The notes under the pieces are model-generated. The model had not been told where the DNA came from. It was given only the letters and a program-made list of their open reading frames with translations, and did no database searches. The translations under genes were made by a program, and so were the position numbers. DNA of 58,269 nt from a virus (taxonomy: Duplodnaviria; Caudoviricetes): positions 1 to 58,269 of the IMG/VR virus record IMGVR_UViG_3300028920_000079. One strand, 5' to 3'. Below are positions 2,941 through 58,252 of the stretch, piece by piece (the stretch's first letter is position 1; every line of letters begins with the position of its first letter).

Positions 2941-3366
2941 ATGAAAAAGGCACGCAGAAAGTTAAGCCCGGCACAAGAAAAGAAACGAGCAGAGAAAAAG
3001 GAAAAGATCAGAGCACTAGCGCAACAGCTCAAAGCAATGCCAGACCACGACCGGGAACGGCTCGCAAGTCAAGTGCAGATCAGGAAAGCTACGGACGGTA
3101 GCTTTTACAGCGTAAAGAATCAATGCCTGATTGCATTCCAGAAAAGAGACGCGACACTTTGCGCCAGTTTTGACGACTGGAAAAAAGAAGGGCGCACGGT
3201 TAGAAAAGGCGAGCGCGGACTTATCGTATTCGTGCCGACGTTCATAAAGGAAAAGGCAAAAGAAACGGACGAGGAACGGGAAAGCCTGCGAGGATTTATT
3301 ACCGGTTATGTGTTCGATATTACGCAGACAGAAGCCATTGAAAAGGAAAACGAAAAGGCAGCATAA
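2941..3366 (+). CDS. ArdC-like N-terminal ssDNA-binding domain protein (anti-restriction)
   Basis: YS.KNQ.LI..Q..AT..ASF..WK..GR.VRKGE.G..VFVP..F..GYVFDI.QT. Confidence 0.8.
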   Translation: MKKARRKLSPAQEKKRAEKKEKIRALAQQLKAMPDHDRERLASQVQIRKATDGSFYSVKNQCLIAFQKRDATLCASFDDWKKEGRTVRKGERGLIVFVPTFIKEKAKETDEERESLRGFITGYVFDITQTEAIEKENEKAA

Positions 3367-3427
3367 CAAAACAGGCACGGCTTGCCCGGCACTACGTCGG
3401 GCAGGCTTGCCGGAAAGCGGGGAATAT

Positions 3428-3883
3428 ATGTATCAAACAGCACTCGTCAACTTGCCGCTATTAGTACGGGAAAGCGGACCGACGAAACGAATAAGCACGC
3501 CGGAAAGCGTCAAAGAAGTATGCGCAGATATGGCAGACCTTGCGCAAGAATCAGTACATATACTATGCCTGAACACAAAAAACGGGTTAATACAGAGCGG
3601 GCGCGTTATGATTACTTTGGGAGTAGTTGACGCATCATTGTTACACCCAAGAGAAGTCTTCAGGCCTGCAATCGTGAACAGCGCAGCGGCAATTATACTT
3701 GTTCACAATCATCCGAGCGGAGACATGACGGCAAGCGCGGAAGATATCAACATCACAAGGCAACTAGTAGAAGCCGGGAAAATCGTAGATATTAAGATTC
3801 TAGATCATTGCATTCTCGGGCGCAATGAAGACGGAGAAGTAGATTGTTTAAGTATGCGCGAAAACGGAATAGTTGCGTTTTAA
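3428..3883 (+). CDS. radC: RadC-like JAB domain protein
   Basis: E..LNTKN..HPREVF..AI..HNHPSGD..S.ED..T..L..G..LDH. Confidence 0.92.
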   Translation: MYQTALVNLPLLVRESGPTKRISTPESVKEVCADMADLAQESVHILCLNTKNGLIQSGRVMITLGVVDASLLHPREVFRPAIVNSAAAIILVHNHPSGDMTASAEDINITRQLVEAGKIVDIKILDHCILGRNEDGEVDCLSMRENGIVAF

Positions 3884-7652: not shown

Positions 7653-7664
7653 ATGAGGTGTATC

Positions 7665-8486
7665 ATGGCTGATTGGCGTGATGTTGTGGGATATGAGGGC
7701 TTATATAAAGTGTCTGATGATGGGAGGGTGTGGTCGCATAAAAGAAACAAGGTAATGCGAGGAAGTTGTCGCCGTGGTTATAGGCGTATATGTTTAACAA
7801 ACAAACGACGAAAAAAAAGTTATTTCATCCATAAACTTCTACTTATAGCATTCGTTGGGCCAAACCCAGAAGGAATGCAAACTTGTCATAATAATGGGAT
7901 ACGCGATGATAATCGGCTGGACAATTTACGTTGGGATACGCCGAAAAACAATGAGAAAGATAAACTTAGGCATGGAACACATCAGCGAGGCGAAAAGTCC
8001 GCAAACGCTAAATTGACCGAGAATGATGTTCGCCAAATTACGAATTTACATCAAGCAGGAATGAGTCATGCCGCCATTGCTAGAAAAGTAGGCGATATAC
8101 TACCAGAAACTATTGGCTTAATTATTAGAGGCAAAAATTGGTCATGGTTGACAAAAATTAAATATAAAAAAGGAAAACGGTATCGAAATAATCAGGGTTC
8201 GCACAATGGTCAATCTAAATTAACAGAAAAGGATGTATTGAAAATTTTGGAACTCTATTGTCAAGGCAAAACCCGTCAACAAATTGCAAATATCATAGGA
8301 AAAGTTAGACCAAATGCCATTGCGCACATTTTAACAGGCTCCCGCTGGCAGTCATTTACACATATTCCATACGAGAAAGGGCGAAATGCAAAACGAGAAA
8401 ACATACAATTGGCTTTCCGGAATTGTACGCAACAGACCCGAAACAGCACTATTGATTCATTGCTTATTGATTCAAGCGTTGCGTAA
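7665..8486 (+). CDS. NUMOD4-HNH homing endonuclease with tandem C-terminal HTH repeats
   Basis: W.DV.GYEGLY.VS..GRV; H.L..AF.GP..H.NG.R.DN.L.NL.W.T; two KLTE.DV repeats. Confidence 0.9.
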   Translation: MADWRDVVGYEGLYKVSDDGRVWSHKRNKVMRGSCRRGYRRICLTNKRRKKSYFIHKLLLIAFVGPNPEGMQTCHNNGIRDDNRLDNLRWDTPKNNEKDKLRHGTHQRGEKSANAKLTENDVRQITNLHQAGMSHAAIARKVGDILPETIGLIIRGKNWSWLTKIKYKKGKRYRNNQGSHNGQSKLTEKDVLKILELYCQGKTRQQIANIIGKVRPNAIAHILTGSRWQSFTHIPYEKGRNAKRENIQLAFRNCTQQTRNSTIDSLLIDSSVA

Positions 8487-9162: not shown

Positions 9163-9311
9163 TTCTTCACGTCCTTTCGATGTATCTCAACCATAGTATC
9201 GTGTATTTTCGATAAACACAAAACCAAAGCACAGCCAATAGATATTACAGGTTCAGGATGAAGTGGTGAGAATGTTATTAGTATAAATGCAATGAAGAAT
9301 CGCATGGTCAT
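9111..9311 (-). CDS. Small hydrophobic protein
   Basis: ATGA overlap with upstream gene; hydrophobic N-terminus. Confidence 0.45.
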   Translation of the reverse strand: MTMRFFIAFILITFSPLHPEPVISIGCALVLCLSKIHDTMVEIHRKDVKKCEPTNQKPSLQSARHG

Positions 9312-9517
9312 GATCCTCTCGCCGTTGTGTTATTCAAATCCGCTTTGATGCTCTCGCAGTATAAACAGATTTGAGTACAATCTGATTCATCGAAAAGTTT
9401 CTGCATTCTGTTGGCATCCGTTCTTATCTTTTGCCCGCACAGTGTCAAGACGCTGCCGTCAGGGAATCCGGCTGATATATCGTGGTATGGTGGCTGAATG
9501 ATGTTGGTCATAGTCAT
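9308..9517 (-). CDS. Small zinc-binding protein
   Basis: H..TLCG..CLYC; GGGAGG RBS. Confidence 0.6.
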   Translation of the reverse strand: MTMTNIIQPPYHDISAGFPDGSVLTLCGQKIRTDANRMQKLFDESDCTQICLYCESIKADLNNTTARGS

Positions 9518-9735
9518 CCTCCCGCCGTCGTATCGCCCGTTTCGATCCGCGCCCACCAGCCGCCTGACGGCCATGATATTTCATTACCTGCTTCGATCAA
9601 CATCAAAATGCTTCGGAACAGTTCCACGTAGTAAGCGTGCAAAAAGCTGGGGTGACTTGTCTTGTTTTTTCGCCACAAATACCACCCTTCAGCGGTCGGC
9701 CTGTCTTTTGTCCAGTTGAGTGTCGGCATGGTCAT
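9514..9735 (-). CDS. WTKDRP-EGWY family small protein, paralog 1
   Basis: NWTKDRPTAEGWYLWR..GGWWARIE. Confidence 0.75.
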   Translation of the reverse strand: MTMPTLNWTKDRPTAEGWYLWRKNKTSHPSFLHAYYVELFRSILMLIEAGNEISWPSGGWWARIETGDTTAGG

Positions 9736-10052
9736 GATCCTTTCGGTGTTTCGATCCGCGCCCACCAGCCACCTTTTGGCCTCGGCACTTTACACTGTAT
9801 TTCAAACAGCCAGACTGGTGCGTGCGGTGTTTTTTCCACAAAGTAAACGAGCCATTTTCGGATGTCGTTCACATTTTTCGCCCGTCGCCAGAAGTACCAC
9901 CCTTCAGCGTTCGGCCTGTCTTTTGTCCAGTTGATCGGCGCGGGTGTTCGGTTCCGCATCGCCTTCAACGCGGCCTTCAACTCAGCCTTCAACGCGGCAT
10001 TTTCTGATTCCAGTTCTTCGACCAGTTCACCTATTTTCATTGTCATCATCAT
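9732..10052 (-). CDS. Coiled coil plus WTKDRP-EGWY family protein, paralog 2
   Basis: NWTKDRPNAEGWYFWR..GGWWARIE. Confidence 0.75.
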   Translation of the reverse strand: MMMTMKIGELVEELESENAALKAELKAALKAMRNRTPAPINWTKDRPNAEGWYFWRRAKNVNDIRKWLVYFVEKTPHAPVWLFEIQCKVPRPKGGWWARIETPKGS

Positions 10053-10276
10053 CCTTCCTCGCCCGGCAGCGTGGCGGTCGGTTGATATTGAGGCCATTCT
10101 TTGCTGGGCCTAATACTACTATTCAGCATACTACAATCACGCGGACTACATAAGAATCCGTCTACATGAGGACAATCATGCGCCAAATAACACACAATTA
10201 AGGGGTCTGGATATTTTCGCTTCCATTCAATTCGTCGCCTCCACATCTTATATTTTTTAATCCACTTCATCATCAT
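10049..10276 (-). CDS. Hypothetical protein
   Basis: C..AHDC.HVDGFLC; translational coupling. Confidence 0.6.
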   Translation of the reverse strand: MMMKWIKKYKMWRRRIEWKRKYPDPLIVCYLAHDCPHVDGFLCSPRDCSMLNSSIRPSKEWPQYQPTATLPGEEG

Positions 10277-10563
10277 CCTTTCTCGCCCGGTGGCGTGGCT
10301 TTCGGTTGGTCAGTTATGTTCGGCGTGCTGTTCGGTAACGGAACTCCCGTGCCAACAATCTGTGTTTGCGTGTATCCGTCATGCTGAAATGTGACGCTGA
10401 TCGTAAACCTATTGACAGCATGAGCATCTACAAGTTTGGCATTCCGCAATGGTTTGATATGTTGCAGTGCGTGTTGTCGAACAATGGCCTTGATACGCCG
10501 GGGGTGACATGTACCTTTTTTTTCTTCAGCGGTCGACCTGTCTTTTGTCCAGTTGAGTTTCAT
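10273..10563 (-). CDS. Chimeric hypothetical protein (WTKDR N-terminus)
   Basis: MKLNWTKDRSTAE followed by unrelated sequence. Confidence 0.6.
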   Translation of the reverse strand: MKLNWTKDRSTAEEKKGTCHPRRIKAIVRQHALQHIKPLRNAKLVDAHAVNRFTISVTFQHDGYTQTQIVGTGVPLPNSTPNITDQPKATPPGEKG

Positions 10564-10724
10564 CGTGGTCCTTTCACCTTTTTTACATGAGCATCTAGCA
10601 CCGACATAATACCGCGCCAGAAGTTCGCCGCAGTGTTGTTCTGGTACATCAGATGAACCATTTCAATTATTGCTTCGCCGGTTGCACGTCCGGCACGTTC
10701 GGCTCTTGATAGTTTCTTGTTCAT
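10560..10724 (-). CDS. Small hypothetical protein (54 aa, not in ORF track)
   Basis: MNKKLSRAERAGRATGEAIIEMVHLMYQNNTAANFWRGI...; GAAAGGA RBS. Confidence 0.65.
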   Translation of the reverse strand: MNKKLSRAERAGRATGEAIIEMVHLMYQNNTAANFWRGIMSVLDAHVKKVKGPR

Positions 10725-10726
10725 GA

Positions 10727-10945
10727 TCATCCTTTCCCGCCCGGCGGCGTGTTCTCAGGAAACCACTCAGCACCTTCAGAATGCACCCGCACCTTGCCGG
10801 TCTTCGTAACATAAACTTGCAGTCTGGTCTTTGGCGTTTCGATTCCGAGCACGATCCATTTCCTTTTTTTATCGCTAGTGATTCTTGTGACTTTGGCAGC
10901 ACCGTATTCAAAGCCGTATTCTGTTTCAGCGTAGTGTATCATCAT
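10727..10945 (-). CDS. Conserved phage hypothetical protein
   Basis: HYAETEYGFEYGAAKV..LQVYVTKTGKVRV. Confidence 0.7.
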   Translation of the reverse strand: MMIHYAETEYGFEYGAAKVTRITSDKKRKWIVLGIETPKTRLQVYVTKTGKVRVHSEGAEWFPENTPPGGKG

Positions 10946-11223
10946 AATCCTTTCCCGCCCGTCACCGTGGCAGTCTGTTGGTCCGTTCTGTCTACTGCAC
11001 TGTTGGGTTGCCTTCTGTTCCATGACTTGACGGCAGCCGCCTCAGTGCGCTCACCACCCATTGAGCAGAAGCAATTTGTATTGTTGCACTGCACCCAGAA
11101 CACCACCTTGGATGTTTTCATCTGAACGTCTGTTGTCCCGCAAAACGGGCAACCCAATAAGGAGTCCGAGCGTACCTCAGAAGGCCGCGTTTCTGGTTGT
11201 TCTTGAGTCTGTTGTGTAGTCAT
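10942..11223 (-). CDS. Lar-like restriction-alleviation zinc protein (cassette gene)
   Basis: CPFCG...V.C....C......A...WNRR. Confidence 0.75.
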   Translation of the reverse strand: MTTQQTQEQPETRPSEVRSDSLLGCPFCGTTDVQMKTSKVVFWVQCNNTNCFCSMGGERTEAAAVKSWNRRQPNSAVDRTDQQTATVTGGKGL

Positions 11224-11447: not shown

Positions 11448-11597
11448 ATTGTTCTCCCGTCCTAGTGCCGGTAAGCCCCGCCTCCGCGCCGTTCTGTGTT
11501 TTGAGTTCTGCACTCAGCATCAATAAACCCGTCAGTGATATAAGTGCAGTATGGCGCTTTGGCGGGGCGGGCCACTCGGCTTTTCCCGGCGTTTTAG

Positions 11598-11768
11598 TCA
11601 GCCATCGCCATTGCCTGAGCCATCGCCTGCGCCTGAGCCATCGCCTGAGCCATCGCCATCGCCATTGCCTGAGCCATCGCCTGCGCCTGAGCCATCGCCT
11701 GAGCCAGAGCCATAGCCAGAGCCATAGCCAGCGCCAGAGCCATAGCCCGATTTTTTTACATTTTCCAT
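11598..11768 (-). CDS. Glycine-rich (G-X)n peptide, 56 aa (not in ORF track)
   Basis: MENVKKSGYGSGAGYGSGYGSGSGDGSG...GNGDG*. Confidence 0.75.
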   Translation of the reverse strand: MENVKKSGYGSGAGYGSGYGSGSGDGSGAGDGSGNGDGDGSGDGSGAGDGSGNGDG

Positions 11769-12118
11769 ATCGGCACCTTTGCAATGTTGTCTTTTGCTGC
11801 TTGAGTGATATTTAATATCTCTATTGCATCCAGTAAAGTTACGGTTTCAACCTCACACGGAAACTTACAGGCACCCGGATTTTTTACACCTTCCATTGCA
11901 AGCTGAGAAAGGGATGCTGCACCAGACCAATACCATAAACGTCTGGCCTTTTTTATCGTGACTTCTTTGCCGTCTCTTTGGGCAAGGTATCCTGCAAATA
12001 CACCTGCTGAATATGTGCGTACGATGACATAAGGCATTTCCTCCATCGGTTCGGCTTGTTGTTGTATGGAACTTGCCTTTATGTATTTCTCTCCATTAAC
12101 TGTGATTTCTTCCTCCAT
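11756..12118 (-). CDS. DUF6948-like conserved phage protein
   Basis: YVIVRTYSAGVFAG..ARRLWYW.GAASLSQLA.EG. Confidence 0.75.
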   Translation of the reverse strand: MEEEITVNGEKYIKASSIQQQAEPMEEMPYVIVRTYSAGVFAGYLAQRDGKEVTIKKARRLWYWSGAASLSQLAMEGVKNPGACKFPCEVETVTLLDAIEILNITQAAKDNIAKVPIWKM

Positions 12119-12394: not shown

Positions 12395-12430
12395 GTCATC
12401 CTCCCTTCGTTGACCGGCCTCCCGGCGTTG

Positions 12431-12766
12431 TTAATCATCCTTGTTTATCGCTGGTATATTCGTTGCTACTGTGTGGTCAAGCAAGTCTATTACATGCCCA
12501 CTGTTCATGATGTATCCGTACACTGATTTCTTTCCGTTGATGATTGAGGTAAAGGTAATCATATTGTTTAGTTTATCGGACGGAACTTCTATCTCGACAC
12601 GCGCCCGCATCTCTGCCAGCGTTATGACCTCATAGGGGTATCCATCCAATGAAACGAGTGGAATATCTTGGTGAACTACAGTCTCGTTGTTACACGATTT
12701 TGTACACACCAGACATGCAGCTACAATGTTTATCAGACAGCAGGAAACAACAGTTACATATTTCAT
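12431..12766 (-). CDS. Hypothetical protein, hydrophobic N-terminus
   Basis: AAGGGG RBS. Confidence 0.55.
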   Translation of the reverse strand: MKYVTVVSCCLINIVAACLVCTKSCNNETVVHQDIPLVSLDGYPYEVITLAEMRARVEIEVPSDKLNNMITFTSIINGKKSVYGYIMNSGHVIDLLDHTVATNIPAINKDD

Positions 12767-12857
12767 GATTTCCCCTTTGTCTTTTCCGACACCCATTCAT
12801 TCCCGTCCATGTCATCCCTCCGTTGACCGGCTTCCCGGCGTTGTTACCATCATCCCA

Positions 12858-13061
12858 TCACTCCTCCATCGCAATCAAAAAAAGCACCATCCCCGCCAGC
12901 CCCAGCATCAGGCCGCTGGGCAGCCACAGCGTTACGTAGTCGGCCGCGTCACACGTCCCGAACACCGGTTCAATGAGTACCATGCAGCCGAACATAATGA
13001 ACGTCAGGCCGACGAATGCGGTGATGATCTTTTCGGTTGTGGTCATGGTTTGCCTTCCCAT
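12858..13061 (-). CDS. Two-TM membrane protein
   Basis: Two hydrophobic stretches. Confidence 0.6.
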   Translation of the reverse strand: MGRQTMTTTEKIITAFVGLTFIMFGCMVLIEPVFGTCDAADYVTLWLPSGLMLGLAGMVLFLIAMEE

Positions 13062-13300
13062 CTGTCACATACATTTCCCAGCCGTATGTCCGTCGTTTCG
13101 CAATTACTGACGCCCATCAACTTGCATTTGTAATATCGTTTATAGGCTTGTTTTGCGATCATCCATTTGCACGTTTTGCATCTATTCCCGCCCGGTATCG
13201 AACGGCGATATCTGTTGTCGAACTTCCACTGTTGGTATGGGCCGCGTTGTTTCTTTGCCGGTGCTATGTCCGAAACTTCTACGCCGAATAGGTCTTTCAT
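13043..13300 (-). CDS. Cys-rich hypothetical protein
   Basis: CKTC..YYKC.L.G...TDIRL..C..W. Confidence 0.75.
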   Translation of the reverse strand: MKDLFGVEVSDIAPAKKQRGPYQQWKFDNRYRRSIPGGNRCKTCKWMIAKQAYKRYYKCKLMGVSNCETTDIRLGNVCDRWEGKP

Positions 13301-13416
13301 GGTGTTCCGTCCTTGTTATTATCACCGTCATCGACCATACACGCGCATACGTACAGTATGCCGAGGATGATCACGGCGAGGCCCATTGAGAATAGTTGGA
13401 TGTTGGTGAATGTCAT
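13297..13416 (-). CDS. Small membrane peptide (39 aa)
   Basis: ATGA overlaps at both ends; one TM segment. Confidence 0.55.
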   Translation of the reverse strand: MTFTNIQLFSMGLAVIILGILYVCACMVDDGDNNKDGTP

Positions 13417-13595
13417 AGCACCCCCTTCTGCCGCCTGATCTTATCCCTGTACGCGATCTTAATAGCGTCCTCGATTGCCGCAGACCTGTTGTTGTCTGTC
13501 AGCTTAGTGATATGATCCAGAAGCAGGTAAGACTGCAGGCTAATGCTTGCAGATATCCGCTTCCACCCGTGTTCTCTCTTGCGTAGTCTCTTCAT
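13413..13595 (-). CDS. Ribbon-helix-helix regulator
   Basis: KRISASIS....LD.....NRSAAIEDAI. Confidence 0.7.
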   Translation of the reverse strand: MKRLRKREHGWKRISASISLQSYLLLDHITKLTDNNRSAAIEDAIKIAYRDKIRRQKGVL

Positions 13596-13620
13596 GCCAT
13601 ACCCCTTTCAATTGTCCGGT

Positions 13621-13720
13621 AGTTTATTAAACTTTAATACCAGAGTCAAGCAATAAACCCTATATTTTTCAATCTTTTTTCTTGCGCTCGTACAGTAATA
13701 TACAGTAATATACTGTAACG
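13621..13720. promoter_or_regulatory. Divergent promoter/operator region
   Basis: - strand TTGACT-17-TAAACT; tandem TACAGTAATA and palindrome TACAGTA-ata-TACTGTA at 13701-13717. Confidence 0.65.
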
Positions 13721-13921
13721 ATGAAATGGAAGCAGATATCCATCAGTATACCGGAAGAGGCGTTACCGTACATTAAACAGGTAGCGAAGGAACAGAATAG
13801 AACGGTAGCTTCTCTCGGTGGATGGGCACTGCTACAGCTTACAGGTTGGTACGATAGACATCCGTTAAACATGAGTGAGTTCATAGAGAATGAAAGAATT
13901 GAACGTACAAACAGACGATAG
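13721..13921 (+). CDS. Ribbon-helix-helix (Arc-like) regulator, probably leaderless
   Basis: KQISISIPE....IK.VA...NRTVA; no RBS, TATACT 6 nt upstream of ATG. Confidence 0.65.
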   Translation: MKWKQISISIPEEALPYIKQVAKEQNRTVASLGGWALLQLTGWYDRHPLNMSEFIENERIERTNRR

Positions 13922-14108
13922 AGACGTTATCATTAGAGGGCAGCAGATTGCTTCCCGCTGGGTAGAGTCTATTTCGCGGGATACTGTAACTGAAATGGCT
14001 CTGATCATGGCAAGACAGGAAAAAGTTATAGCGAAATGTACTGTTGAAATTGATCGGCTGACTAAAGAGATCAGGATACTTCAGCAGAAGCTGTCTTTAA
14101 CTGAATAA
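13890..14108 (+). CDS. Hypothetical coiled-coil protein
   Basis: ORF overlapping the RHH gene. Confidence 0.45.
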   Translation: MKELNVQTDDRDVIIRGQQIASRWVESISRDTVTEMALIMARQEKVIAKCTVEIDRLTKEIRILQQKLSLTE

Positions 14109-14310
14109 GCTTTGCCTGTCCTGCTTTGATCCGTTTCCGTTCACCGTACCGCTTTGCAATCATGTATTGATCATCGTCCAGTAGCTTTGCATTACTCTTA
14201 GCAGGCTTTTCCCACATCCCTCTGGACTTGTAATACCTTGGTCTTTCGTAGGTGCCGTCCCATACGGTAACGATACCGTCCTTGTCTCGACAATACCATA
14301 CAGTTTTCAT
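14071..14310 (-). CDS. Hypothetical protein
   Basis: WYCRDKDG; ATGA overlap. Confidence 0.6.
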   Translation of the reverse strand: MKTVWYCRDKDGIVTVWDGTYERPRYYKSRGMWEKPAKSNAKLLDDDQYMIAKRYGERKRIKAGQAKLIQLKTASAEVS

Positions 14311-14867
14311 GCTTCTGCCTTGTCCTTAAGCTGTGCTTGTGCTGTTAATCCTACACCTATAGCGGCCCATACATCCTTGCTTACACCGTACAGTGGTCCC
14401 GGCTTATGCTTCCAGCCTGTAGCATCGCACTCAGGGCACGGTTCATGGTCCCTGCCTACCCATGTCTTACCTTTACAACGCTGGCACTTCTTGCCGCCTA
14501 TAGCCTCTTCCTTGGTCGGGCCGTAATGGTCTATTATAGCCTGTCTAATAGTGCTATCGTTAGCCCTTGGGTTTTTGCATAGATGCAGCTTTACATCCTG
14601 ACGGTATATCTTGATCTTCTTGCCAGCTCGTGAGGCTTGCCAGAACCGGCCAGCCCAGAACACTGTCTCAAATGTAGACTTGCCGACGGGCATACCGTAA
14701 GAGGCAACCATTTCAACGGCTAGGACGGCGACAAAAGGCCATATGTTATACAACTCAGGCAGCATATCTTCGTTAGAAAGAAGTCCGAAGTCTTCTATCT
14801 TCGGCAAGCGATAATCTAGGACTGCATATGCCGACTGGTATGTACCGGGATCAATGGCTAAGATCAT
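14307..14867 (-). CDS. RuvC-like Holliday junction resolvase with zinc-finger insert
   Basis: ILAIDPG..AVEMVASYG..FETV.W.GRF..D.WAA; CQRC..CPEC insert. Confidence 0.75.
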   Translation of the reverse strand: MILAIDPGTYQSAYAVLDYRLPKIEDFGLLSNEDMLPELYNIWPFVAVLAVEMVASYGMPVGKSTFETVFWAGRFWQASRAGKKIKIYRQDVKLHLCKNPRANDSTIRQAIIDHYGPTKEEAIGGKKCQRCKGKTWVGRDHEPCPECDATGWKHKPGPLYGVSKDVWAAIGVGLTAQAQLKDKAEA

Positions 14868-15124
14868 GTTGTTTCCTTTAACTCGTATCGCGACAAGGCT
14901 TGCTCTAACGTCACCTTACCGCGAGCAGCCCTATGCCACAGCAGCAGACCGACAACGCCAACCTGTTCAGGCTCTATATGCTCACAGTGGGCGGCTGCAA
15001 GCAAGCATTCATCTCGCGTGTACTCGGCAAGTTCCAGAGTCATCAACGGGACACGTTGCCTACGCCATCTCTCTTCACGCTTCCACAGAGCCGACCCTTC
15101 TTGTATCATCCGTACAAATTTCAT
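14864..15124 (-). CDS. Hypothetical protein
   Basis: Start lies in the junction repeat; coupled to downstream gene. Confidence 0.55.
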   Translation of the reverse strand: MKFVRMIQEGSALWKREERWRRQRVPLMTLELAEYTRDECLLAAAHCEHIEPEQVGVVGLLLWHRAARGKVTLEQALSRYELKETT

Positions 15125-15133
15125 AATCCTACC

Positions 15134-15190
15134 CTCAAACCAGCGTCTACAGACGACGTGGATACACGCGCCTGAGACTTGTCGTTGACT
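15134..15190 (+). mobile_element. Integron attC-like site 1 of array
   Basis: CTCAAAC-5-TCT[A]CAGA-CG[A]CGTG-gata-CACG-CG-CCTGAGA-6-GTTGACT. Confidence 0.75.
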
Positions 15191-15209
15191 ATAAACTAAG
15201 GAACCATAA

Positions 15210-15488
15210 ATGAATAGAGAACCAGATTTGACGCTTAAAATACAGCAAGCGAATGTAGAACTGCGTCAATATATTTTTGCATTGGAAAAAGAAATTGCTC
15301 GCCTTCAAAAGCAGAATGCGCATCTCCAAGCGAAGGATACATCCAACCAATACAGGATCTCGCATCTTGAGCAAAGCATAGCCGACCTTCAGCGTAAAAC
15401 AAGGCTTCATGTCAACATCGGTTTGAGTTCGCAATCTACACCTCCTGATACACAATCAAGTCAACAAAAGAATCCAGCAGACGGATAA
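15210..15488 (+). CDS. Cassette-borne coiled-coil protein
   Basis: AAGGA RBS just after the core site; opposite strand to the surrounding operon. Confidence 0.7.
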   Translation: MNREPDLTLKIQQANVELRQYIFALEKEIARLQKQNAHLQAKDTSNQYRISHLEQSIADLQRKTRLHVNIGLSSQSTPPDTQSSQQKNPADG

Positions 15489-15513
15489 ACCGCCGCTGAT
15501 CCATACGTTAAAA
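15459..15513 (+). mobile_element. Integron attC-like site 2
   Basis: AGTCAAC-5-AAT[C]CAGC-AG[A]CGG-ataaa-CCG-CC-GCTGATC-5-GTTAAAA; AGTCAAC is the reverse complement of the upstream core GTTGACT. Confidence 0.85.
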
Positions 15514-15528
15514 GACCAAAGGAATATC

Positions 15529-15774
15529 ATGCAAAAACCTGTATTTTTTGTTTCTGAACGTGAATATCCTAAGCTACAAGCTGCATGCCCTGACGACTTC
15601 CCGTGGAAGTACCAAGAATTTGTTGAGCGATTTCAAAGCCTTTTGAGACATGATCCTAGCATCATCAAGATCAACGTGCGCGTAGCCGATTTTCTCGACT
15701 GGTGCAACAAGACCAAGGTCAATCCCAATAATACCTCTCGTGCTAGATATGCTGCACTTCTTTTCGCCAAATAA
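15529..15774 (+). CDS. Cassette-borne hypothetical protein
   Basis: AAAGGA RBS; Y.KL....D.FP..Y.EF..F..WC....R..YAA. Confidence 0.75.
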   Translation: MQKPVFFVSEREYPKLQAACPDDFPWKYQEFVERFQSLLRHDPSIIKINVRVADFLDWCNKTKVNPNNTSRARYAALLFAK

Positions 15775-15803
15775 TTTTAGTCTACTGTTCATACTTAATT
15801 CCT

Positions 15804-15857
15804 TTCTAATCATAAGTTGGAGCGGACGGAGTACCGCCGCTCATCTACACGTTAGGC
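15804..15857 (+). mobile_element. Integron attC-like site 3
   Basis: TTCTAAT-5-GTT[G]GAGC-GG[A]CGG-agta-CCG-CC-GCTCATC-5-GTTAGGC. Confidence 0.8.
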
Positions 15858-16094
15858 AATATGATCTCCGTTCCAATGTTCCATCACCTGAAGGCACAGT
15901 GCCCCCAAATCTATAGCCTCAGCGTAAATCCTATCTTCATTTCCACCTTCGTGTTTATGTTGCAAAATTGCCTGAGCAAGTTCCCCTGTTTCTTCTGCAA
16001 CAGCAAGCCCAAGCGTCTCAACGTTTTGCTTTCCCCATTTCTTTAGATTGTTGCTTGCTCGTTGAATCAACATATCTACGTTTTTGACATTCAT
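15852..16094 (-). CDS. MazG-like nucleotide pyrophosphohydrolase
   Basis: KWG.Q..EETGELAQA...EAIDLGA; TAA stop lies in the attC core. Confidence 0.7.
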   Translation of the reverse strand: MNVKNVDMLIQRASNNLKKWGKQNVETLGLAVAEETGELAQAILQHKHEGGNEDRIYAEAIDLGALCLQVMEHWNGDHIA

Positions 16095-16098
16095 AACC

Positions 16099-16407
16099 CT
16101 ACCCTCTAACCGCAACAGAAGTTGTGTCAATCCTGTTCAATTTATCTATTTCAGATTCAGGAACCTCATCACGATGATATGCTAAATAATGTACAGCAAG
16201 ACTGTTTGTTATAGTTCCATCAGGAAGCACTAAATCATACGTTGTACTATGCTCGCCGCATACACAAGTATGCCATCCGCGCCAGCACGTACCTTTCTGT
16301 GCTACAGCAAGCAATGCTCTCATCTTCGCTGTAAGCTCATCTTCTACTGGTTTCTTGCTAGCTGGTTGTGTGGGTCGAATATAAAGCAATAAGTTATCGT
16401 TTGGCAT
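16099..16407 (-). CDS. Hypothetical zinc-binding protein
   Basis: RGWHTC.CG..S...TNSLAVHYLA.HR.EVP. Confidence 0.75.
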   Translation of the reverse strand: MPNDNLLLYIRPTQPASKKPVEDELTAKMRALLAVAQKGTCWRGWHTCVCGEHSTTYDLVLPDGTITNSLAVHYLAYHRDEVPESEIDKLNRIDTTSVAVRG

Positions 16408-16411
16408 AACC

Positions 16412-16639
16412 CTACCCTCTAACCGCAACAGACCAAAAACCGTCCCATGGCTCTTGTGTTGCATTGGCATAATGAATTTCACATATTGGTCCTTGATATC
16501 CGCATGACTGACAAATGACCGCAACCAGCAATCGACCATGTTTATTTTTAGAACCCATGCATGCTACAGTTAATCCCGACAACTGTCCTGCAATAGCTTT
16601 GCATTGCGGACATGGCTCAACATTGAATGCATCTGGCAT
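16412..16639 (-). CDS. Lar-like zinc-ribbon protein
   Basis: PCPQC..VICQSCGYQGP..W. Confidence 0.55.
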   Translation of the reverse strand: MPDAFNVEPCPQCKAIAGQLSGLTVACMGSKNKHGRLLVAVICQSCGYQGPICEIHYANATQEPWDGFWSVAVRG

Positions 16640-16643
16640 AACC

Positions 16644-17318
16644 TTATCCTCGTACCGCAACAGAAGTCTCGCTATACACCTTGACACCCGGTATATTCAT
16701 GTTGCCCTTCAACGCCTTTGCCAATTGTCCGAGCACCTTTGTATCCGGCTTAACACAATTCTCTGCCGCCTTACCCTCGGCTATCGCAGTACACAACAGC
16801 TTCATATCCTCAACCTCAGCCTTCCATATCTGTCTTGTACTGACACCCTCGGCCTGCGGTGCTTCCTCGACAGGCTTAACAACTTCGGGAACAATAGGCG
16901 TTTCGAGGATAGCGGCAGCCGCTTTGTCCGATCCGAACTTTTCCAGAGCTTCGGCCTCTTCGAGACGTGCAGCTTCAGCCTTGCGCATAGCCTCTTCTTC
17001 TGCCTTGCGCTGCGCTTCCTGAATCTCACGTTCTCGCTGCATCTTGTAGTCAGCAAGCTTTGCCTTGACCTGCCTTTCAGCTTGGTCTAACGGCTTATCA
17101 AACTTGTTTTCCAAAGCTTTCACTTCTTTCCAAGCTTGATGCGCTTGCTTTACGGCTGGGCCTATCTCTTGTTTTACGCGCTTACGCATAGCTCGTATCG
17201 CAACTAGTAGCTTGCCGCCGTCCTCATAGTTAGAATCCGTTGTTACTTCAAATGCCTGTGCCTGATACAATACTGGCGTGACTTCCTGCTTAACCTTGGT
17301 TTCCATTTCCGTGTTCAT
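16644..17318 (-). CDS. Conserved coiled-coil protein of phage recombination modules
   Basis: Long E/A/K helix; W.AEV.D..IPGV.VY. Confidence 0.75.
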   Translation of the reverse strand: MNTEMETKVKQEVTPVLYQAQAFEVTTDSNYEDGGKLLVAIRAMRKRVKQEIGPAVKQAHQAWKEVKALENKFDKPLDQAERQVKAKLADYKMQREREIQEAQRKAEEEAMRKAEAARLEEAEALEKFGSDKAAAAILETPIVPEVVKPVEEAPQAEGVSTRQIWKAEVEDMKLLCTAIAEGKAAENCVKPDTKVLGQLAKALKGNMNIPGVKVYSETSVAVRG

Positions 17319-17908
17319 TCTACTGCTTCCTTTTCTCGTTGCTCATAATACTTATGCACCGCCTCCACAAACATAGCCTTATCATTCCTGCTTATATACG
17401 GCTCACTCAAAGAGAACTTGCCGTCAGAAGATAGATACAGATTATACCGCTCTATTATATCAGGATGCCCGTTCTCTTGCGCCAACAACTCATACCCTGC
17501 CGTCTGTAACTTATCTTTCGGCGACGGTACACCTGTCTTAATGTCCAGAAGTATACGCCTACCGAATAATCGGCCTATCCTGTCCCATGTCCCTGCATAC
17601 TTGTATACTTCCGAGTATGCCATCTGCTCAATACTCTCAGGCACAAAACACGTAGCCTGCTTGAAGAATGTATACGCACGTACATAAGGAACACAGACAG
17701 GATCGACCGACTTCCAGTCCAAGTCATGCTGATCGTAGAAAGCACAAGCCTGATGTACGAATGTACCTCTATCCTGAGCACGCTTGAGTGTAGCTTCAGG
17801 TATATGGCTGAAGTCTGTAGGATATACAGCCTGCAGGATCTGTGTTACGCTTGGAACTTCTTCACCGTTCCAGTAGTACGTGTGTGTCTGTTCGTTAAAA
17901 CTCAACAT
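17315..17908 (-). CDS. PD-(D/E)XK (Cas4/RecE-like) exonuclease
   Basis: H.Y..G..VPSVTQIL..RGT.VH..YAGT.D..DIKTG..QT.GY. Confidence 0.85.
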   Translation of the reverse strand: MLSFNEQTHTYYWNGEEVPSVTQILQAVYPTDFSHIPEATLKRAQDRGTFVHQACAFYDQHDLDWKSVDPVCVPYVRAYTFFKQATCFVPESIEQMAYSEVYKYAGTWDRIGRLFGRRILLDIKTGVPSPKDKLQTAGYELLAQENGHPDIIERYNLYLSSDGKFSLSEPYISRNDKAMFVEAVHKYYEQREKEAVE

Positions 17909-18227
17909 GAGATTCTAGTACCGCCCTATGTTTTTCCATTGTCTGTAGGAATTCGTCCGTAGCTTGCTCGGCATCCTGTAACGCCATATGTAGGCTGTTG
18001 TATAAGTCTTCTGCACTTTTCAGAATATCTGTATCACCAGAATATATAGGGAATTGTGCAAATGGATCATCACACTTCACATATAATCGAACTGATGAAT
18101 GATCACCTGCTTTGAACCGTTTCAAAGCCTTGCGCATAGGCTCGAATTCGACAGAAACAATTTGTATTTTTTTCAATAAATGTTTTATCTCAACTATTCT
18201 ACTATTCAATTCTTCCTTGCTTAACAT
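17895..18227 (-). CDS. Hypothetical protein
   Basis: GAGG RBS, operon context. Confidence 0.6.
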   Translation of the reverse strand: MLSKEELNSRIVEIKHLLKKIQIVSVEFEPMRKALKRFKAGDHSSVRLYVKCDDPFAQFPIYSGDTDILKSAEDLYNSLHMALQDAEQATDEFLQTMEKHRAVLESHVEF

Positions 18228-18432
18228 CCTCGCTATCCTTTCTGATTATCCGACATGATATTCTCAATGTACTCGAACAATAAGCTACCGGCCTCTTCCG
18301 TAGTCAAGTCTTCCAGCTTCTTGTCAATCGGAATCTTTGCAGCCTTACGACACTGAGCAATCTGATCAGCCGTCAGCTTAGCCTGCAAGTCTATCAAGTC
18401 ATTAAGATCCTGTTCGGCGATACCATCTTCAA

Positions 18433-19224
18433 CTACTTTTTTTTTACGTCAGGCTCTTCAGGCGGCAGCACTTCTGTTTCCGGTTCCTTCTCAGGCTCAG
18501 GTGTAGACTCCGATGCACGTTGCGGTGCCATCAAGGGTTCCGAGACGTTCAGAGGCTCAATGTCTTTGAGGCTATCAAAATCTTTTCCAAGTGCGTCGTG
18601 AAACTCTGCCGACAATGGCAGTGTCTTTGAGTGCCTGCGGATAACTGTCTTCTTACACATCTCAGTGTAGTCTGTTTTCCAAGGCCCAGTAGTAGCAGCC
18701 TTAGAACGCTTACGTATACTTTCGCATTCATCCTTGGTCATTACGCAGAAGCTCTTTGAGTCATCCTTGAATATCGCACAGCTATAGACCGCATACATCT
18801 CACCTCTCGGCTTACGGAAATCTATTCTATGCTTTGTTACCTGTCCAAGATTGTAATCGAAGTCGTCATTCTCGCAGACTATCTCTGCATACCAGTCCTT
18901 CAACTGGCCTGACCTGCGGCCTAGCTCGATGAGACCCTTATAGTCAAAAATGAGTGTGCATTTATCCCCATATGGAATTAAATGCACGAGGCGTCCGTCT
19001 GGCGGCAAGCCAGAAGATGCGCAATCCATCATGCACGAAAGCAATGATTCTTGAGTACACTCGGCAAGCTTAGGTGTTTTGCTTAACATAGTCAGCATCA
19101 CCCTCGTGAACCGTTCAGCCGTTAGAAACTTCGGCAATGCCATTGCTATCTGCTGCCGCATTGTATCCTTGTTAATCAGTGCCTTGATTGAGTTTACCTT
19201 TGCGAGTCCTGTTTCCTGTGTCAT
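18433..19224 (-). CDS. recT: RecT single-strand annealing protein; possible -1 frameshift extension to 18233
   Basis: ALPK.LT.ERF..KL.ECT..S..GL..HLIPY..YKGLIEL.RRSG..PW.TD..EM.KKTVIRR..K.LP.S. Confidence 0.92.
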   Translation of the reverse strand: MTQETGLAKVNSIKALINKDTMRQQIAMALPKFLTAERFTRVMLTMLSKTPKLAECTQESLLSCMMDCASSGLPPDGRLVHLIPYGDKCTLIFDYKGLIELGRRSGQLKDWYAEIVCENDDFDYNLGQVTKHRIDFRKPRGEMYAVYSCAIFKDDSKSFCVMTKDECESIRKRSKAATTGPWKTDYTEMCKKTVIRRHSKTLPLSAEFHDALGKDFDSLKDIEPLNVSEPLMAPQRASESTPEPEKEPETEVLPPEEPDVKKK

Positions 19225-19250
19225 GTTGTCTGTCCTTTCTGTTATATTAC

Positions 19251-19661
19251 CTACTCTTCCGGCCATCTTTCCACCACACGAATACCAGTTCCTTCAACCA
19301 CAAACATATATCCGCAATCCCGTAGAGCCTCATTAACTACAGGAATTACCTTCTCGAATTCAGATTTCCACAATCGGTTTAATGCAGGAATCATTGCTTC
19401 AAGAACCAGTTTAGTCGTAGTGCTGCCAGCAGCCTGTTGTTCTTTCAGCATGGGAAGCTCATATATATGAAACTCATGTCTGTGAATTATTCCGTTCTTA
19501 TCTACGTAATCACACTGTAATAATGGAACAGCTTCAATCTTAAAACCTATAGGCATCATAGCGAAGTGTCCTCTTACAGTCATTGTTATGCCCATATAAG
19601 TAAACGTTTCACCAATACCTCGAAATGCTATTAGCTCTTCTATCTGTTTTTTTTCATTCAT
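19251..19661 (-). CDS. Hypothetical protein
   Basis: ATGA overlap with the integrase stop. Confidence 0.6.
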   Translation of the reverse strand: MNEKKQIEELIAFRGIGETFTYMGITMTVRGHFAMMPIGFKIEAVPLLQCDYVDKNGIIHRHEFHIYELPMLKEQQAAGSTTTKLVLEAMIPALNRLWKSEFEKVIPVVNEALRDCGYMFVVEGTGIRVVERWPEE

Positions 19662-20761
19662 GGCATAATCCCAAAGTATTCCTCGCCCTCTTCCCTCGTA
19701 GCCAAGTTCCGGTAATGCTTGAACAACACACTGCTACTGTTGCCCATCATGCTGGTAGTCTTACTTACGTTCCCGTACTTGGCACAATGATACGTCGAAA
19801 AACTATGTCGAGTGATATTACTAGACCACTCTAATCCGTCCACCATAGCAACCAAGCTCTTCCTGTACTGATCAAACTCACGCCTGCCAACAAGCATATC
19901 ATCCGTAATAGAAGCATCCCAAGTAGCATCCAGCCAAGCAATCAGGTTATCTTCCATCTCAATATACCTAGACTGCCTGCACTTACTCACCTCTGGGTTA
20001 ATAAGTATAATACCTCTGGAACGCTGTATTTCGCCGTAGGATAACCTCTCGGCCTCAGATGAACGAAGGCCGGCAAATAATAAGATCGCGCCTTGTAGCT
20101 GCACTCTCGGCAATCCTTGCGCCCTTCTAAGCAGCATTTCAGCATGTTCAACGCTTAATACCTCTGGCATCTTCTCTTCTATGCTTGGTGACTGCAGTCT
20201 ATCGGTAGGCGTATCCTCTATGAAGCCTCGCTTTTTCGCAAAATTGAAAAAGACTTTAAGGTAACGCTGATCATTTGACTGTGTGATGAGACTAAGCGTG
20301 TGTCTCGTAGACAGGAAATGCTCTATCATATCCGGTGTAATCTGATCAACAGGTCGGTCGCCGCATATCTTAAGGAACCGTTTAAGGCTACATTCTGCAG
20401 TATCTATGCTACGTTGCCGTCTATTCATGTTCCGCATATCCTGAAGCAGCATCTCGTATACCTTCTGGGCACTGGGAATATAGTGTCTTGCCTTGTGGTG
20501 CTGATTGTAGAAGGATACTGCATCCAGTAAAGAACCGTCACCTAACATCTCGTAGGCTTGTGCCGCTGTTGCGAGTTGTTTCAGGGAAAAGTTCATTGCC
20601 TGCTCGCCGTACTTCTGCTGTTGTGTACGCAGGTGATCGGCAAGATCCTCGGCTAATTCTTGGGTCTTGCGCCGGTAGACTCTACGGTGATTGTCGATCC
20701 AGCCACAGTCTACTACCCATGAGCCGTTCTTTTCTTCTCTTATTCTCGGCCATTCTTTCAT
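19658..20761 (-). CDS. Tyrosine recombinase / integrase
   Basis: FAGLRSSE (R), SK, TRHSF.TY, MGNS, KHY; N-terminal arm-binding-like region. Confidence 0.88.
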   Translation of the reverse strand: MKEWPRIREEKNGSWVVDCGWIDNHRRVYRRKTQELAEDLADHLRTQQQKYGEQAMNFSLKQLATAAQAYEMLGDGSLLDAVSFYNQHHKARHYIPSAQKVYEMLLQDMRNMNRRQRSIDTAECSLKRFLKICGDRPVDQITPDMIEHFLSTRHTLSLITQSNDQRYLKVFFNFAKKRGFIEDTPTDRLQSPSIEEKMPEVLSVEHAEMLLRRAQGLPRVQLQGAILLFAGLRSSEAERLSYGEIQRSRGIILINPEVSKCRQSRYIEMEDNLIAWLDATWDASITDDMLVGRREFDQYRKSLVAMVDGLEWSSNITRHSFSTYHCAKYGNVSKTTSMMGNSSSVLFKHYRNLATREEGEEYFGIMP

Positions 20762-20762
20762 C

Positions 20763-21092
20763 TTAGTATCCCGTAATTGTAATTGCACCTACTAATACGC
20801 CAATACCACCCATGATTATTACTGTTGCAAAAAGGAAACCTAAAGCTGCCATAAGCAGTGAGCCAATACGTAAAACCCAAGGACTGCTTTGCCACTCGTC
20901 CTTATGTAGCATTGATAAATATGGTATCAAACAGACAATGGTAATGCCTGTGAATAGCAGCAAGGTGCTGCAAAGGCTTCTTACAAAAAGCTCATTCCAA
21001 TCAGTACCTGCAATAAGAGCATTCGATACGACTGTATTAGTTGCCACATCTACATAAGCCTTAGTTGCCATAGGATTCGTATATGTCATCAC
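20763..21092 (-). CDS. Two-TM membrane protein
   Basis: Two hydrophobic segments; TN-rich N-terminus. Confidence 0.55.
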   Translation of the reverse strand: MMTYTNPMATKAYVDVATNTVVSNALIAGTDWNELFVRSLCSTLLLFTGITIVCLIPYLSMLHKDEWQSSPWVLRIGSLLMAALGFLFATVIIMGGIGVLVGAITITGY

Positions 21093-57878: not shown

Positions 57879-58148
57879 TCAGGGCTTCGGAAGGTATAAA
57901 CCAAACCCGTCCGTTACGATAGAATTATGGCGCATATTAGCCAACTTTAGCGCATGCTCATAAAACACCTTGTAACTTTTCTCATCACTAGGCTTGTATA
58001 TGTCCGACAATGTGTCAATGTCGTCCAGTAATGTGTACATCGTCTCTACAAGCCGCAATAGCTGCTCATGTGTACAGGATGATACAGGATTGCCTAAGTT
58101 ATCCGTAATACGCTCACTTATACCTTGTGTCTGAACTTCTTCTGTCAT
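57879..58148 (-). CDS. Hypothetical protein
   Basis: LLDDIDT.SD..KP..DG..L. Confidence 0.65.
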   Translation of the reverse strand: MTEEVQTQGISERITDNLGNPVSSCTHEQLLRLVETMYTLLDDIDTLSDIYKPSDEKSYKVFYEHALKLANMRHNSIVTDGFGLYLPKP

Positions 58149-58252
58149 CTCGCTTTACCCTTTCCGCTCGGTTTTAAAAAAAATGAGTCCTCGGTATGGG
58201 AGGTAAACATATATACGTGCGACAGGGTGCCTGCTGAACGGTACCGGTTGGT
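58127..58252. repeat. Terminal direct repeat, copy 2
   Basis: Identical to 1-126. Confidence 0.95.

Follow-up and report, generated by a model that had tools for sequence, protein, structure and literature searches.

Duplicated gene junctions behind a phage recombination module: candidate scars of stepwise gene accretion

How phages gain single genes exactly at gene borders is an old and unsettled question, with targeted exchange at short boundary sequences on one view and random illegitimate joins filtered by selection on the other. We address it at one locus of an uncultured phage, IMG/VR virus record IMGVR_UViG_3300028920_000079, the whole 58,269 bases of which form the window analysed here. 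In its early, minus-strand region, three neighbouring and otherwise unrelated genes end in the same six residues, SVAVRG: g224, which encodes 224 amino acids (aa), and two small genes downstream of it, A and B. The DNA that encodes this tail is part of a 28-nucleotide (nt) junction repeat, J, which runs on into the start of the following gene; two further small genes, C and D, also begin at copies of J (Table 1). What is J, and how did unrelated genes come to share it? The reading we favour, at a probability of roughly 0.6, is that the J repeats are recombination scars that double as translation-start regions, and that they mark stepwise gene accretion downstream of the recombination module to which g224 belongs.

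The 28-nt unit TCTGTTGCGGTTAGAGGGTAGGGTTATG is present with complete identity (28/28) on the minus strand at 16092-16119 (copy J2) and 16405-16432 (J1), and these were its only two matches in the window when up to three mismatches were allowed, against 0.00 expected (100 shuffles). Read on the minus strand, J is TCT GTT GCG GTx xGA GGx TAx, that is SVAVRG-stop, then GGTT and then the ATG of the next gene; its upstream 13 nt are TCTGTTGCGGTTA. The copy at the end of g224 (J0, 16637-16664) matches J1 and J2 at 24/28 positions and likewise codes for SVAVRG followed by a stop. In a fourth copy (J3, 15122-15141, GGTTTGAGGGTAGGATTATG) the SVAVRG half is missing, and the remainder matches J1/J2 at 18/20 positions and J0 at 15/20. 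The 15-mer core GAGGGTAGGNTTATG, searched at up to two mismatches, was confined to J0-J3 in the 58 kb (four found, 0.23 expected, a count of four being reached in 0/100 shuffles), and J is therefore not a genome-wide ribosome-site consensus. Seven nt ahead of the ATG, J1, J2 and J3 carry GAGGG and J0 carries GAGGA; all copies lie on the minus strand. All-against-all blastp limited the similarity of the g224, A and B proteins to a tail of 6-7 aa, and the identity of J1 and J2 has abrupt edges, outside which the genes are without similarity. Just beyond the unit, J2 and J0 have an extra upstream ACT codon in common, and J1 and J0 a CCA after the ATG; these flank extensions fit copies of one ancestral junction.

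To which gene did the tail first belong? The homologues of g224 are informative here. There are 16 in the databases (best identity 38%), of which 14 extend past a conserved PGV..Y/E block through a similar short tail, for example SVAVRAS, SAVRA or VVSARA, and two stop earlier. The homologue in Pseudomonas phage Itty13 ends in KSVSVRV and that in Shewanella phage vB_Sb_QDWS in VIAARAA; in vB_Sb_QDWS the gene order RecT-exonuclease-X is annotated, with the g224 homologue after RecT and the exonuclease. An AlphaFold2 model of g224 (17-sequence alignment, mean pLDDT 83) has a beta-strand at residues 212-222 (VKVYSETSVAV) in the C-terminal domain, and this strand includes SVAV. Because similar tails occur in the homologues and SVAV lies within a modelled beta-strand, the SVAVRG tail is native to g224. 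As to what g224 does, the PHROG label 'exonuclease' is putative only; Foldseek of the model against the PDB returned nothing at E <= 0.001, and tblastn of g224 against phage records gave four distant partial matches only.

The tails of A and B, judged from their homologues and, for B, also from a structure model, are derived. Both genes are near-orphans with five database relatives each. For gene A these were found by an exhaustive HMMER search (a word-index search returned only gene A itself), and the alignment took in the three short relatives and left out two multi-domain proteins (285 and 303 aa). SVAVRG is present in 0/3 of the aligned homologues. Their similarity to gene A ends at ...PW(D/E/K)AF, for example PWDAF, beyond which the three relatives go on for another 16-25 aa; for this reason we take gene A to have been truncated and re-tailed. 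Gene B has protein homologues at 46-57% identity, and an SVAVRG end was found in 0/5 of these and in 0/7 viral loci that encode gene B homologues. Four of the five stop at ...KL(R/V)(R/S)L(P), for example KLRRL, a point beyond which gene B has DTTSVAVRG, and an unrelated extension is found in the fifth. In the AlphaFold2 model of gene B (mean pLDDT 87.8) the tail lies beyond the last helix, as coil, and pLDDT falls there to 48.

Several of these points had been raised in a first-pass annotation of the same DNA, made from its letters alone. Its statements that three neighbouring unrelated genes end in SVAVRG, that 28 bp are identical at 16092 and 16405, and that the derived copies contain GTTAGAG and the native copy does not were all borne out, and its expectation that homologues of the genes at 16099 and 16412 would lack SVAVRG was confirmed by the counts above. 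Its proposal of iterative gene capture that regenerates its own target is supported in a homology-driven form: the tail is native in g224, is absent from the aligned homologues of A and B, and the copies are polar, as described below.

The loci of the gene B homologues were also scanned for junction repeats, and none of 16 nt or more was found at the borders of that gene in the three of the seven that were scanned. In one viral contig (L006) the 11-nt GGGCGGGTAGC flanks the gene B homologue on both sides, which is too short to count. As separate observations on this contig, the gene B homologue, in the region 3378-3831, ends in ...KAGG-stop and has GGGCGGGTAG before its start and at its end, and the stretch after it is repeated (1730-1786 and 3775-3831) and resembles tRNA 3' halves by eye.

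The four copies of J are not equivalent, and their differences bear on the order in which they may have arisen. J0 differs from J1 and J2 at four sites (GTA/GTT, CGA/AGA, GGA/GGG and TAA/TAG), all of them silent, whether synonymous or stop-to-stop; by simulation, the chance that four random substitutions would all be silent is ~0.006 within the 21 coding nt and ~0.017 over the 28 nt. This is read most simply as descent of J0 and J1/J2 from two g224 alleles that diverged under purifying selection on the g224 tail; the exchange would therefore have been between related phages, not a copying within one genome. The codons TCT GTT GCG show no synonymous drift between J0 and J1/J2. The copies also have a polarity, with J3 partial and decayed, J2 identical to J1, and J0 of the other allele, which suggests accretion at the g224-proximal end. 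Gene C begins at the ATG of J2 and has its own terminus, ...GDHIA-stop, without SVAVRG.

How might such an array have been built? On the accretion reading, the end of g224 would be the border between a conserved recombination module (RecT, exonuclease and g224) and a variable row of small accessory genes, and small foreign genes would have been joined in directly behind g224, D probably first, followed by C, B and finally A. Joining would have been by unequal or illegitimate crossover between co-infecting relatives, with the conserved module setting the alignment and the illegitimate joint falling on its far side; exchange inside the junction itself is an alternative route. Every such join would duplicate the last 6-7 codons of g224, the stop, the internal Shine-Dalgarno site, the 4-nt spacer and the ATG. 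The incoming gene would lose its own end and read into the copied tail, the gene downstream would retain a working and closely coupled start, and the shared peptide would be a by-product. Fusions in frame or nearly in frame that end a few bases from the next ATG would be favoured, with downstream expression preserved, and they should be easy to obtain because J itself, to judge from its sequence, contains a stop in two of its three frames. The resulting 28-nt direct repeats lie between recombination genes, with RecT and the exonuclease on one side of the array and a RuvC-like resolvase on the other, and could now promote the loss, gain or swapping of whole genes by annealing of the RecT/Red-beta type. 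Red-beta recombination is quoted as needing at least ~30 bp (De Paepe et al. 2014, PMC3945230).

Several results weigh against this account. With the best g224 homologue only 38% identical, the relatives found are too distant to reveal whether genes were gained, lost or swapped at J. A degenerate J pattern had 0 matches in the contig sets viral_contigs and metagenome_contigs, megablast of positions 13000-20000 against phage records gave no match, and protein-pattern scans of viral_contigs with g224, D and C found no relatives. The k=31 contigs of one sequencing run contained no joints between J copies and no J x J deletion or circle; because such contigs drop rare variants, this has no bearing on whether recombination occurs. 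A contrast in GC content exists, with A, B, C and the plus-strand genes between C and D at 42-45% and g224, D and the resolvase at 50-53%, but it is weak, given that other core genes stand at 37-47%. The drift-free TCT GTT GCG could instead mean selection at the nucleotide level, a 28-nt repeat just reaches, or falls slightly short of, the length quoted as minimal for Red-beta-type recombination, and the order of insertion is read from four junction copies only.

Is J an isolated case within this genome? A whole-window repeat search found at least three further families of junction repeats. The closest in kind is a second shared-tail row on the minus strand (9308-11223), in which a 42-nt junction is present four times, at 10043, 10267, 10721 and 10939 (span 10043-10980). 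Its copies are 69-88% identical to the reference copy, and its core CCGGGCGRGRAAGGATGATSATGA was found four times against 0.00 expected. Here the tails of four consecutive genes read ...QPTATLPGEEG, ...QPKATPPGEKG, ...ENTPPGGKG and ...QQTATVTGGKGL (ending ...TVTGGKGL); each stop overlaps the next ATG, the tail overlies the ribosome site of the next gene as it does in J, and all-against-all blastp found the genes unrelated beyond the tail. In the Lar-family (restriction-alleviation) protein of this row the Pfam match ends at residue 71 of 93, 22 aa before the stop, and the tail is therefore an add-on. A plus-strand row at 1189-2943 consists of six consecutive small genes, each preceded by a stop and a leader, with CACGGGAGG..CAATG in five of the six; protein tails are not shared there. 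A 35-nt repeat (91% identical) lies before two adjacent genes, at 12399-12433 and 12812-12846, and comprises, on the minus strand, a stop, a short GC hairpin and a ribosome site.

Two further repeats may be listed with these. A 50-nt segment encoding LNWTKDRPTAEGW (9670-9719, 9885-9934 and 10507-10556) is common to three otherwise different genes, two of which are true paralogues (E 3e-18); the third has the N-terminal piece only, and is for that reason a mosaic. A 22-nt repeat at 15489-15510 and 15833-15854 (~36 nt with the hairpin included) brackets the second of the two plus-strand genes between C and D and fits the same junction pattern. Duplicating 20-40 nt at gene joints is thus a general habit of this genome, and unrelated proteins end up with a common tail wherever the duplicate takes in part of the gene upstream.

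The plus-strand genes between C and D deserve separate description. The opposite-strand block that holds them (15142-15850) contains two genes. Behind each stands a 9-bp hairpin, homologous between the two and with one bulged A, and then ATCYAYACGTTA (hairpin and ATCYAYACGTTA together at 15475-15510 and 15820-15854). One base pair is compensatory between the two hairpins (C-G in one, G-C in the other), which suggests that the hairpin matters and gives no sign of attC identity. Fold energies were -5.2 to -13 kcal/mol (z -1.5 to -3.5). The hairpins are without a T-run and are therefore not classical terminators, and the hairpin motif had 0 matches in viral_contigs. A minor contig in the source run (313 nt, depth 3.4 versus ~32) shares 15851-15880 with the window and diverges completely left of 15851 (15850/15851), and the phage population is therefore polymorphic for what comes after gene C; the 30-nt loose end of this contig was not found in the window, metagenome_contigs or viral_contigs. 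Position 15851 is the G of GTTAGGC; it also comes 1 nt after the gene C stop, where a mosaic boundary would be nothing unusual. Were the block removed, the stop of gene C (TAA, then C) would abut the GGTT of J3, and an older C-D junction at which gene C once met J3 is plausible.

What else could J be? It may be a selected translation-start or regulatory motif of the kind known from the SAS/ESAS elements of Cluster K mycobacteriophages, which share one 13-bp consensus (GGGATAGGAGCCC), repeated many times over the non-structural half of the genome (Pope et al. 2011, PMC3203893). Every accessory gene would then need one and the same leader, either for coupling or as the target of a shared RNA-binding regulator; upstream genes would acquire the common tail simply by running into it, and the repeats would persist for their function and not as traces of insertion. 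This possibility is compatible with the J repeats also being scars. Each gene row does have its own conserved leader with a Shine-Dalgarno site and ATG (CACGGGAGG..CAATG in 5/6, CCGGGCGRGRAAGGATGATSATGA four times, GAGGGTAGGNTTATG four times), J0, J1 and J2 agree throughout 11 nt of J (TCTGTTGCGGT) despite three synonymous sites at which they could have varied, and SAS lies 3-7 bp ahead of the starts of unrelated non-structural genes, sometimes containing the upstream stop (PMC3203893). We nevertheless think a selected leader unlikely as the explanation. Motifs are usually graded in conservation, whereas J1 and J2 are identical over 28 nt and have sharp edges; J0 varies exactly in the Shine-Dalgarno-proximal part; and J3 retains the 3' 20 nt only, so that the upstream 8 nt are dispensable for gene D. 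No RNA fold was shared among the four J contexts (z -0.6, -1.8, +0.7 and -1.8), and Rfam had no match in 14800-16800. J has four copies in one row, against the many of SAS, and the SAS consensus itself had 0 matches at up to two mismatches in this phage. Less probable again is that SVAVRG is a portable C-terminal peptide tag, either a partner-binding or a degradation signal of the recombination module, selected on A and B; the first-pass annotation had allowed for such a functional tag. All four differences between J0 and J1/J2 do preserve the peptide and the stop, and the tail motif is conserved across the g224 family. Selection on g224, with its SVAV in a modelled beta-strand, explains the silent pattern as well, no homologue of A or B has the tail, and in gene B it is modelled as coil of falling confidence. 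Moreover, the second row has a Gly-rich tail, unrelated to SVAVRG, in the same position over the next ribosome site, which argues for a positional by-product, and J1 is identical to J2, leaving no time for selection on A and B to show. A tag is accordingly quite improbable. An assembly artefact, in which the repeats chained genes of different strains, we regard as barely credible. The sample is a metagenome, and a minor variant lies nearby. As a check we turned to a separate assembly, the k=31 contigs of the one public run in which this DNA was found: a single 39-kb contig, at an even depth of 31, spans J0, J1 and J2 with zero differences and without other letters, gaps or joints, evidence that is not fully independent, as this run is possibly the window's own source. 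The 28-nt repeat is also shorter than k-1, so the graph is not collapsed, and in-frame fusions with intact genes would be unlikely in a chimera. Target-site duplication by a staggered-cut integrase (CRISPR/casposon-like) was also considered and rejected; there was no such enzyme among the genes scanned, and the inserts start right after an ATG and end in frame, for which selection on recombinants is a simpler explanation.

Site-specific capture of the integron type has to be weighed against the plus-strand block as well as J. In such a scheme J and the hairpin sites at 15145-15854 would be of attI/attC type, with an IntI-like recombinase acting at GTT cores. The first-pass annotation had gone partly this way, describing the block as an attC array, J3 as a half copy cut exactly at the AAC of an attC R'' site, and GTTAGAG as a GTT core-like sequence, with capture possibly driven in part by IntI. 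Integron core sites follow the consensus RYYYAAC (R'') and GTTRRRY (R'); cassettes, whose content varies between genomes, are bounded at the GTT of the core site; and the canonical attC fold, an imperfect hairpin with extrahelical bases, is much longer than the 9-bp hairpins at 15475-15510 and 15820-15854. The GTTAGGC at 15851 fits GTTRRRY, and it is exactly to the left of this position that the minor contig (depth 3.4 versus ~32) diverges; the two plus-strand genes are cassette-like, with a bulged hairpin that ends in ACGTTA behind each; and one tyrosine recombinase is encoded at 19658-20788. That recombinase, however, scores 31.3 / 30.7 bits against TIGR02249, for which the cut-off is 265, and its best NCBIfam matches are XerD/XerC-like and far under their own cut-offs, a weak Xer/phage-integrase resemblance; it is the single tyrosine recombinase in a 58-kb genome whose ends overlap. 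Between 15100 and 15900 there are one RYYYAAC (15341) and two GTTRRRY (15622 and 15851) and no inverted pair, 15775-15850 contains no AAC whatever, and no GTT site has an RYYYAAC partner, in a genome where GTTRRRY or RYYYAAC occurs by chance at 1.7 per kb. The hairpins fold weakly, with 9 bp and one bulged A, and 15851, lying directly behind gene C, is also where a mosaic boundary of the ordinary sort would fall. GTTAGAG in J departs from GTTRRRY at position 7, and so was not upheld as a core-like site; GTTAAAA (15507) and GTTGACT (15184) fail too. J3 is indeed a partial copy of J (18/20 nt), but the proposed R'' at its edge, CTCAAAC at 15134-15140, fails RYYYAAC at position 1. With neither an inverted core pair nor an IntI-grade recombinase, what had been called an attC array comes down to two genes and their hairpins, and capture by IntI and attC sites is largely refuted for this phage; only a very slight chance is left to it.

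If J marks accretion by homology, where does it stand among known phage systems? In T4-type phages, conserved regulatory cassettes that end in a Shine-Dalgarno site and start codon drive the shuffling of ORFans, and promoter-early stem-loop (PeSL) elements are proposed to mediate whole-gene gain, loss and shuffling by homologous recombination without a dedicated integrase, shown there by mini-circles (PMC2839356; Arbiol, Comeau and Krisch 2010). As in PeSL cassettes, small orphan genes of a variable region are flanked at J by short conserved elements whose last part is the Shine-Dalgarno site and start codon of the gene that follows. Unlike the PeSL motif, which has a promoter and a terminator and measures ~100 nt, J is 28 nt long and has no sigma-70 early promoter, stem-loop terminator or shared fold; a promoter and terminator scan gave 3 promoter-like sites against 5.3 expected, none specific to J and nothing above chance. 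J extends into the upstream coding region, where it gives unrelated proteins a common tail, and its phage is not T4-like and carries RecT and an exonuclease. Exchange between PeSL copies was demonstrated by indels between close relatives and by mini-circles, whereas J is known here from sequence. With SAS, J has in common a repeat with a ribosome-binding site a few nt before the ATG of unrelated non-structural genes, sometimes overlapping the upstream stop; it differs in that the junctions of this phage are longer and specific to each gene row, with 2-6 copies apiece, and in that J1 and J2 are exact duplicates with sharp edges.

Models of phage mosaicism set conserved boundary or 'linker' sequences against illegitimate recombination (PMC3233612), and relaxed homologous recombination by Rad52-like or RecT-type recombinases has been described (De Paepe et al. 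2014, PMC3945230). These models share with the J locus exchange at gene boundaries, short homologies as crossover sites and a phage-encoded annealing protein. What differs is that the J boundary is visibly duplicated in tandem within one genome, with native and derived copies and with intermediates preserved. Integron cassette arrays, too, grow by polar accretion at one site, from promoterless single-gene units and with a repeated junction regenerated at each insertion; the J phage, by contrast, is without IntI or an attC core pair, its hairpins are much shorter than a canonical attC, and J is a coding tail with a ribosome site and not a folded recombination site. By analogy, then, stepwise accretion matches both the cassette logic of PeSL and the boundary-sequence model. 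J itself is a variant of the known phage junction repeats (PeSL, SAS), set apart from PeSL by its shared coding tail.

Table 1. Features of the recombination module and the J array, in order of minus-strand transcription
Feature	Position	Strand	Remarks
Xer-like tyrosine recombinase	19658-20788	-	First in transcription order
136-aa open reading frame (ORF)	Between tyrosine recombinase and RecT	-	
RecT	18433-19266	-	Pfam RecT, E 2e-44
Two small ORFs	Between RecT and exonuclease	-	
PD-(D/E)XK exonuclease	17315-17908	-	phrog_298, E 2e-22
g224, 224-aa gene	16644-17318	-	phrog_10477, E 3e-23; third of the RecT / PD-(D/E)XK exonuclease / g224 module
J0, native junction	16637-16667	-	ACT TCT GTT GCG GTA CGA GGA TAA GGTT ATG: g224 end, stop, spacer, gene A start
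Gene A, 75 aa, Cys-rich (CxxC...CxxC), ends WSVAVRG	16412-16639	-	From the ORF list
J1, derived junction copy	16405-16432	-	Gene A end, TAG, GGTT, gene B ATG
Gene B, 102 aa, ends DTTSVAVRG	16099-16407	-	Weak DUF7919 match
J2, derived junction copy	16092-16122	-	Gene B end, TAG, GGTT, gene C ATG
Gene C, 80-aa MazG-like protein	15852-16094	-	phrog_1247, E 7e-7; Pfam MazG E 0.004, below cut-off
Two small plus-strand genes	15210-15488 and 15529-15774	+	Within opposite-strand block 15142-15850
J3, partial junction	15122-15141	-	GGTTTGAGGGTAGGATTATG: ribosome site and start only, ahead of gene D
Gene D, 86-aa orphan	14864-15124	-	Followed by RuvC-like resolvase
RuvC-like resolvase	14307-14867	-	phrog_1770

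Some features of the record as a whole may be added. Its first 126 bases (1-126) recur exactly at 58127-58252, as found in the whole-window repeat search, and because of this exact repeat the contig probably closes on itself. The 58-kb genome is thus probably complete, and circularly permuted or terminally redundant; the record's own class is linear, 80% complete. At 11582-11773 an 18-nt tandem repeat in eight overlapping copies lies inside a minus-strand ORF and encodes a Gly/Ser/Asp-rich run, and by arithmetic the k=31 contig begins within it, at ~11702. Elsewhere, the genome encodes an HNH endonuclease with NUMOD4 and two helix-turn-helix domains, of the homing-endonuclease type (7653-8486), and a RadC-like JAB-domain protein (3308-3883).

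What, then, does the locus contribute to the question of how phages gain single genes at gene borders? It keeps the intermediates together: the junction in its native form, a pair of exact derived copies to which foreign genes, truncated or extended, are joined in frame, and one older copy that has decayed, with several sister arrays of the same signature in the same genome. J thereby offers a concrete substrate for the question of whether RecT-type proteins use junctions of ~28 nt. For annotation it advises caution, in that C-terminal motifs common to neighbouring phage proteins can be positional by-products. A bolder version of homology-driven accretion, which we hold to be a long shot, is that J is an evolved, integrase-free and self-regenerating 28-nt 'landing pad' at the end of the RecT/exonuclease module, where the annealing recombinase of the phage takes up single genes and reshuffles them within a polar array. 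Were this so, capture itself would provide each gene with a working translation start for the gene next to it, and the phage would have a homology-driven functional analogue of the integron, in several instances per phage and with one junction type for each gene row. J also suggests a natural design for phage gene insertion in which translational coupling is built in.

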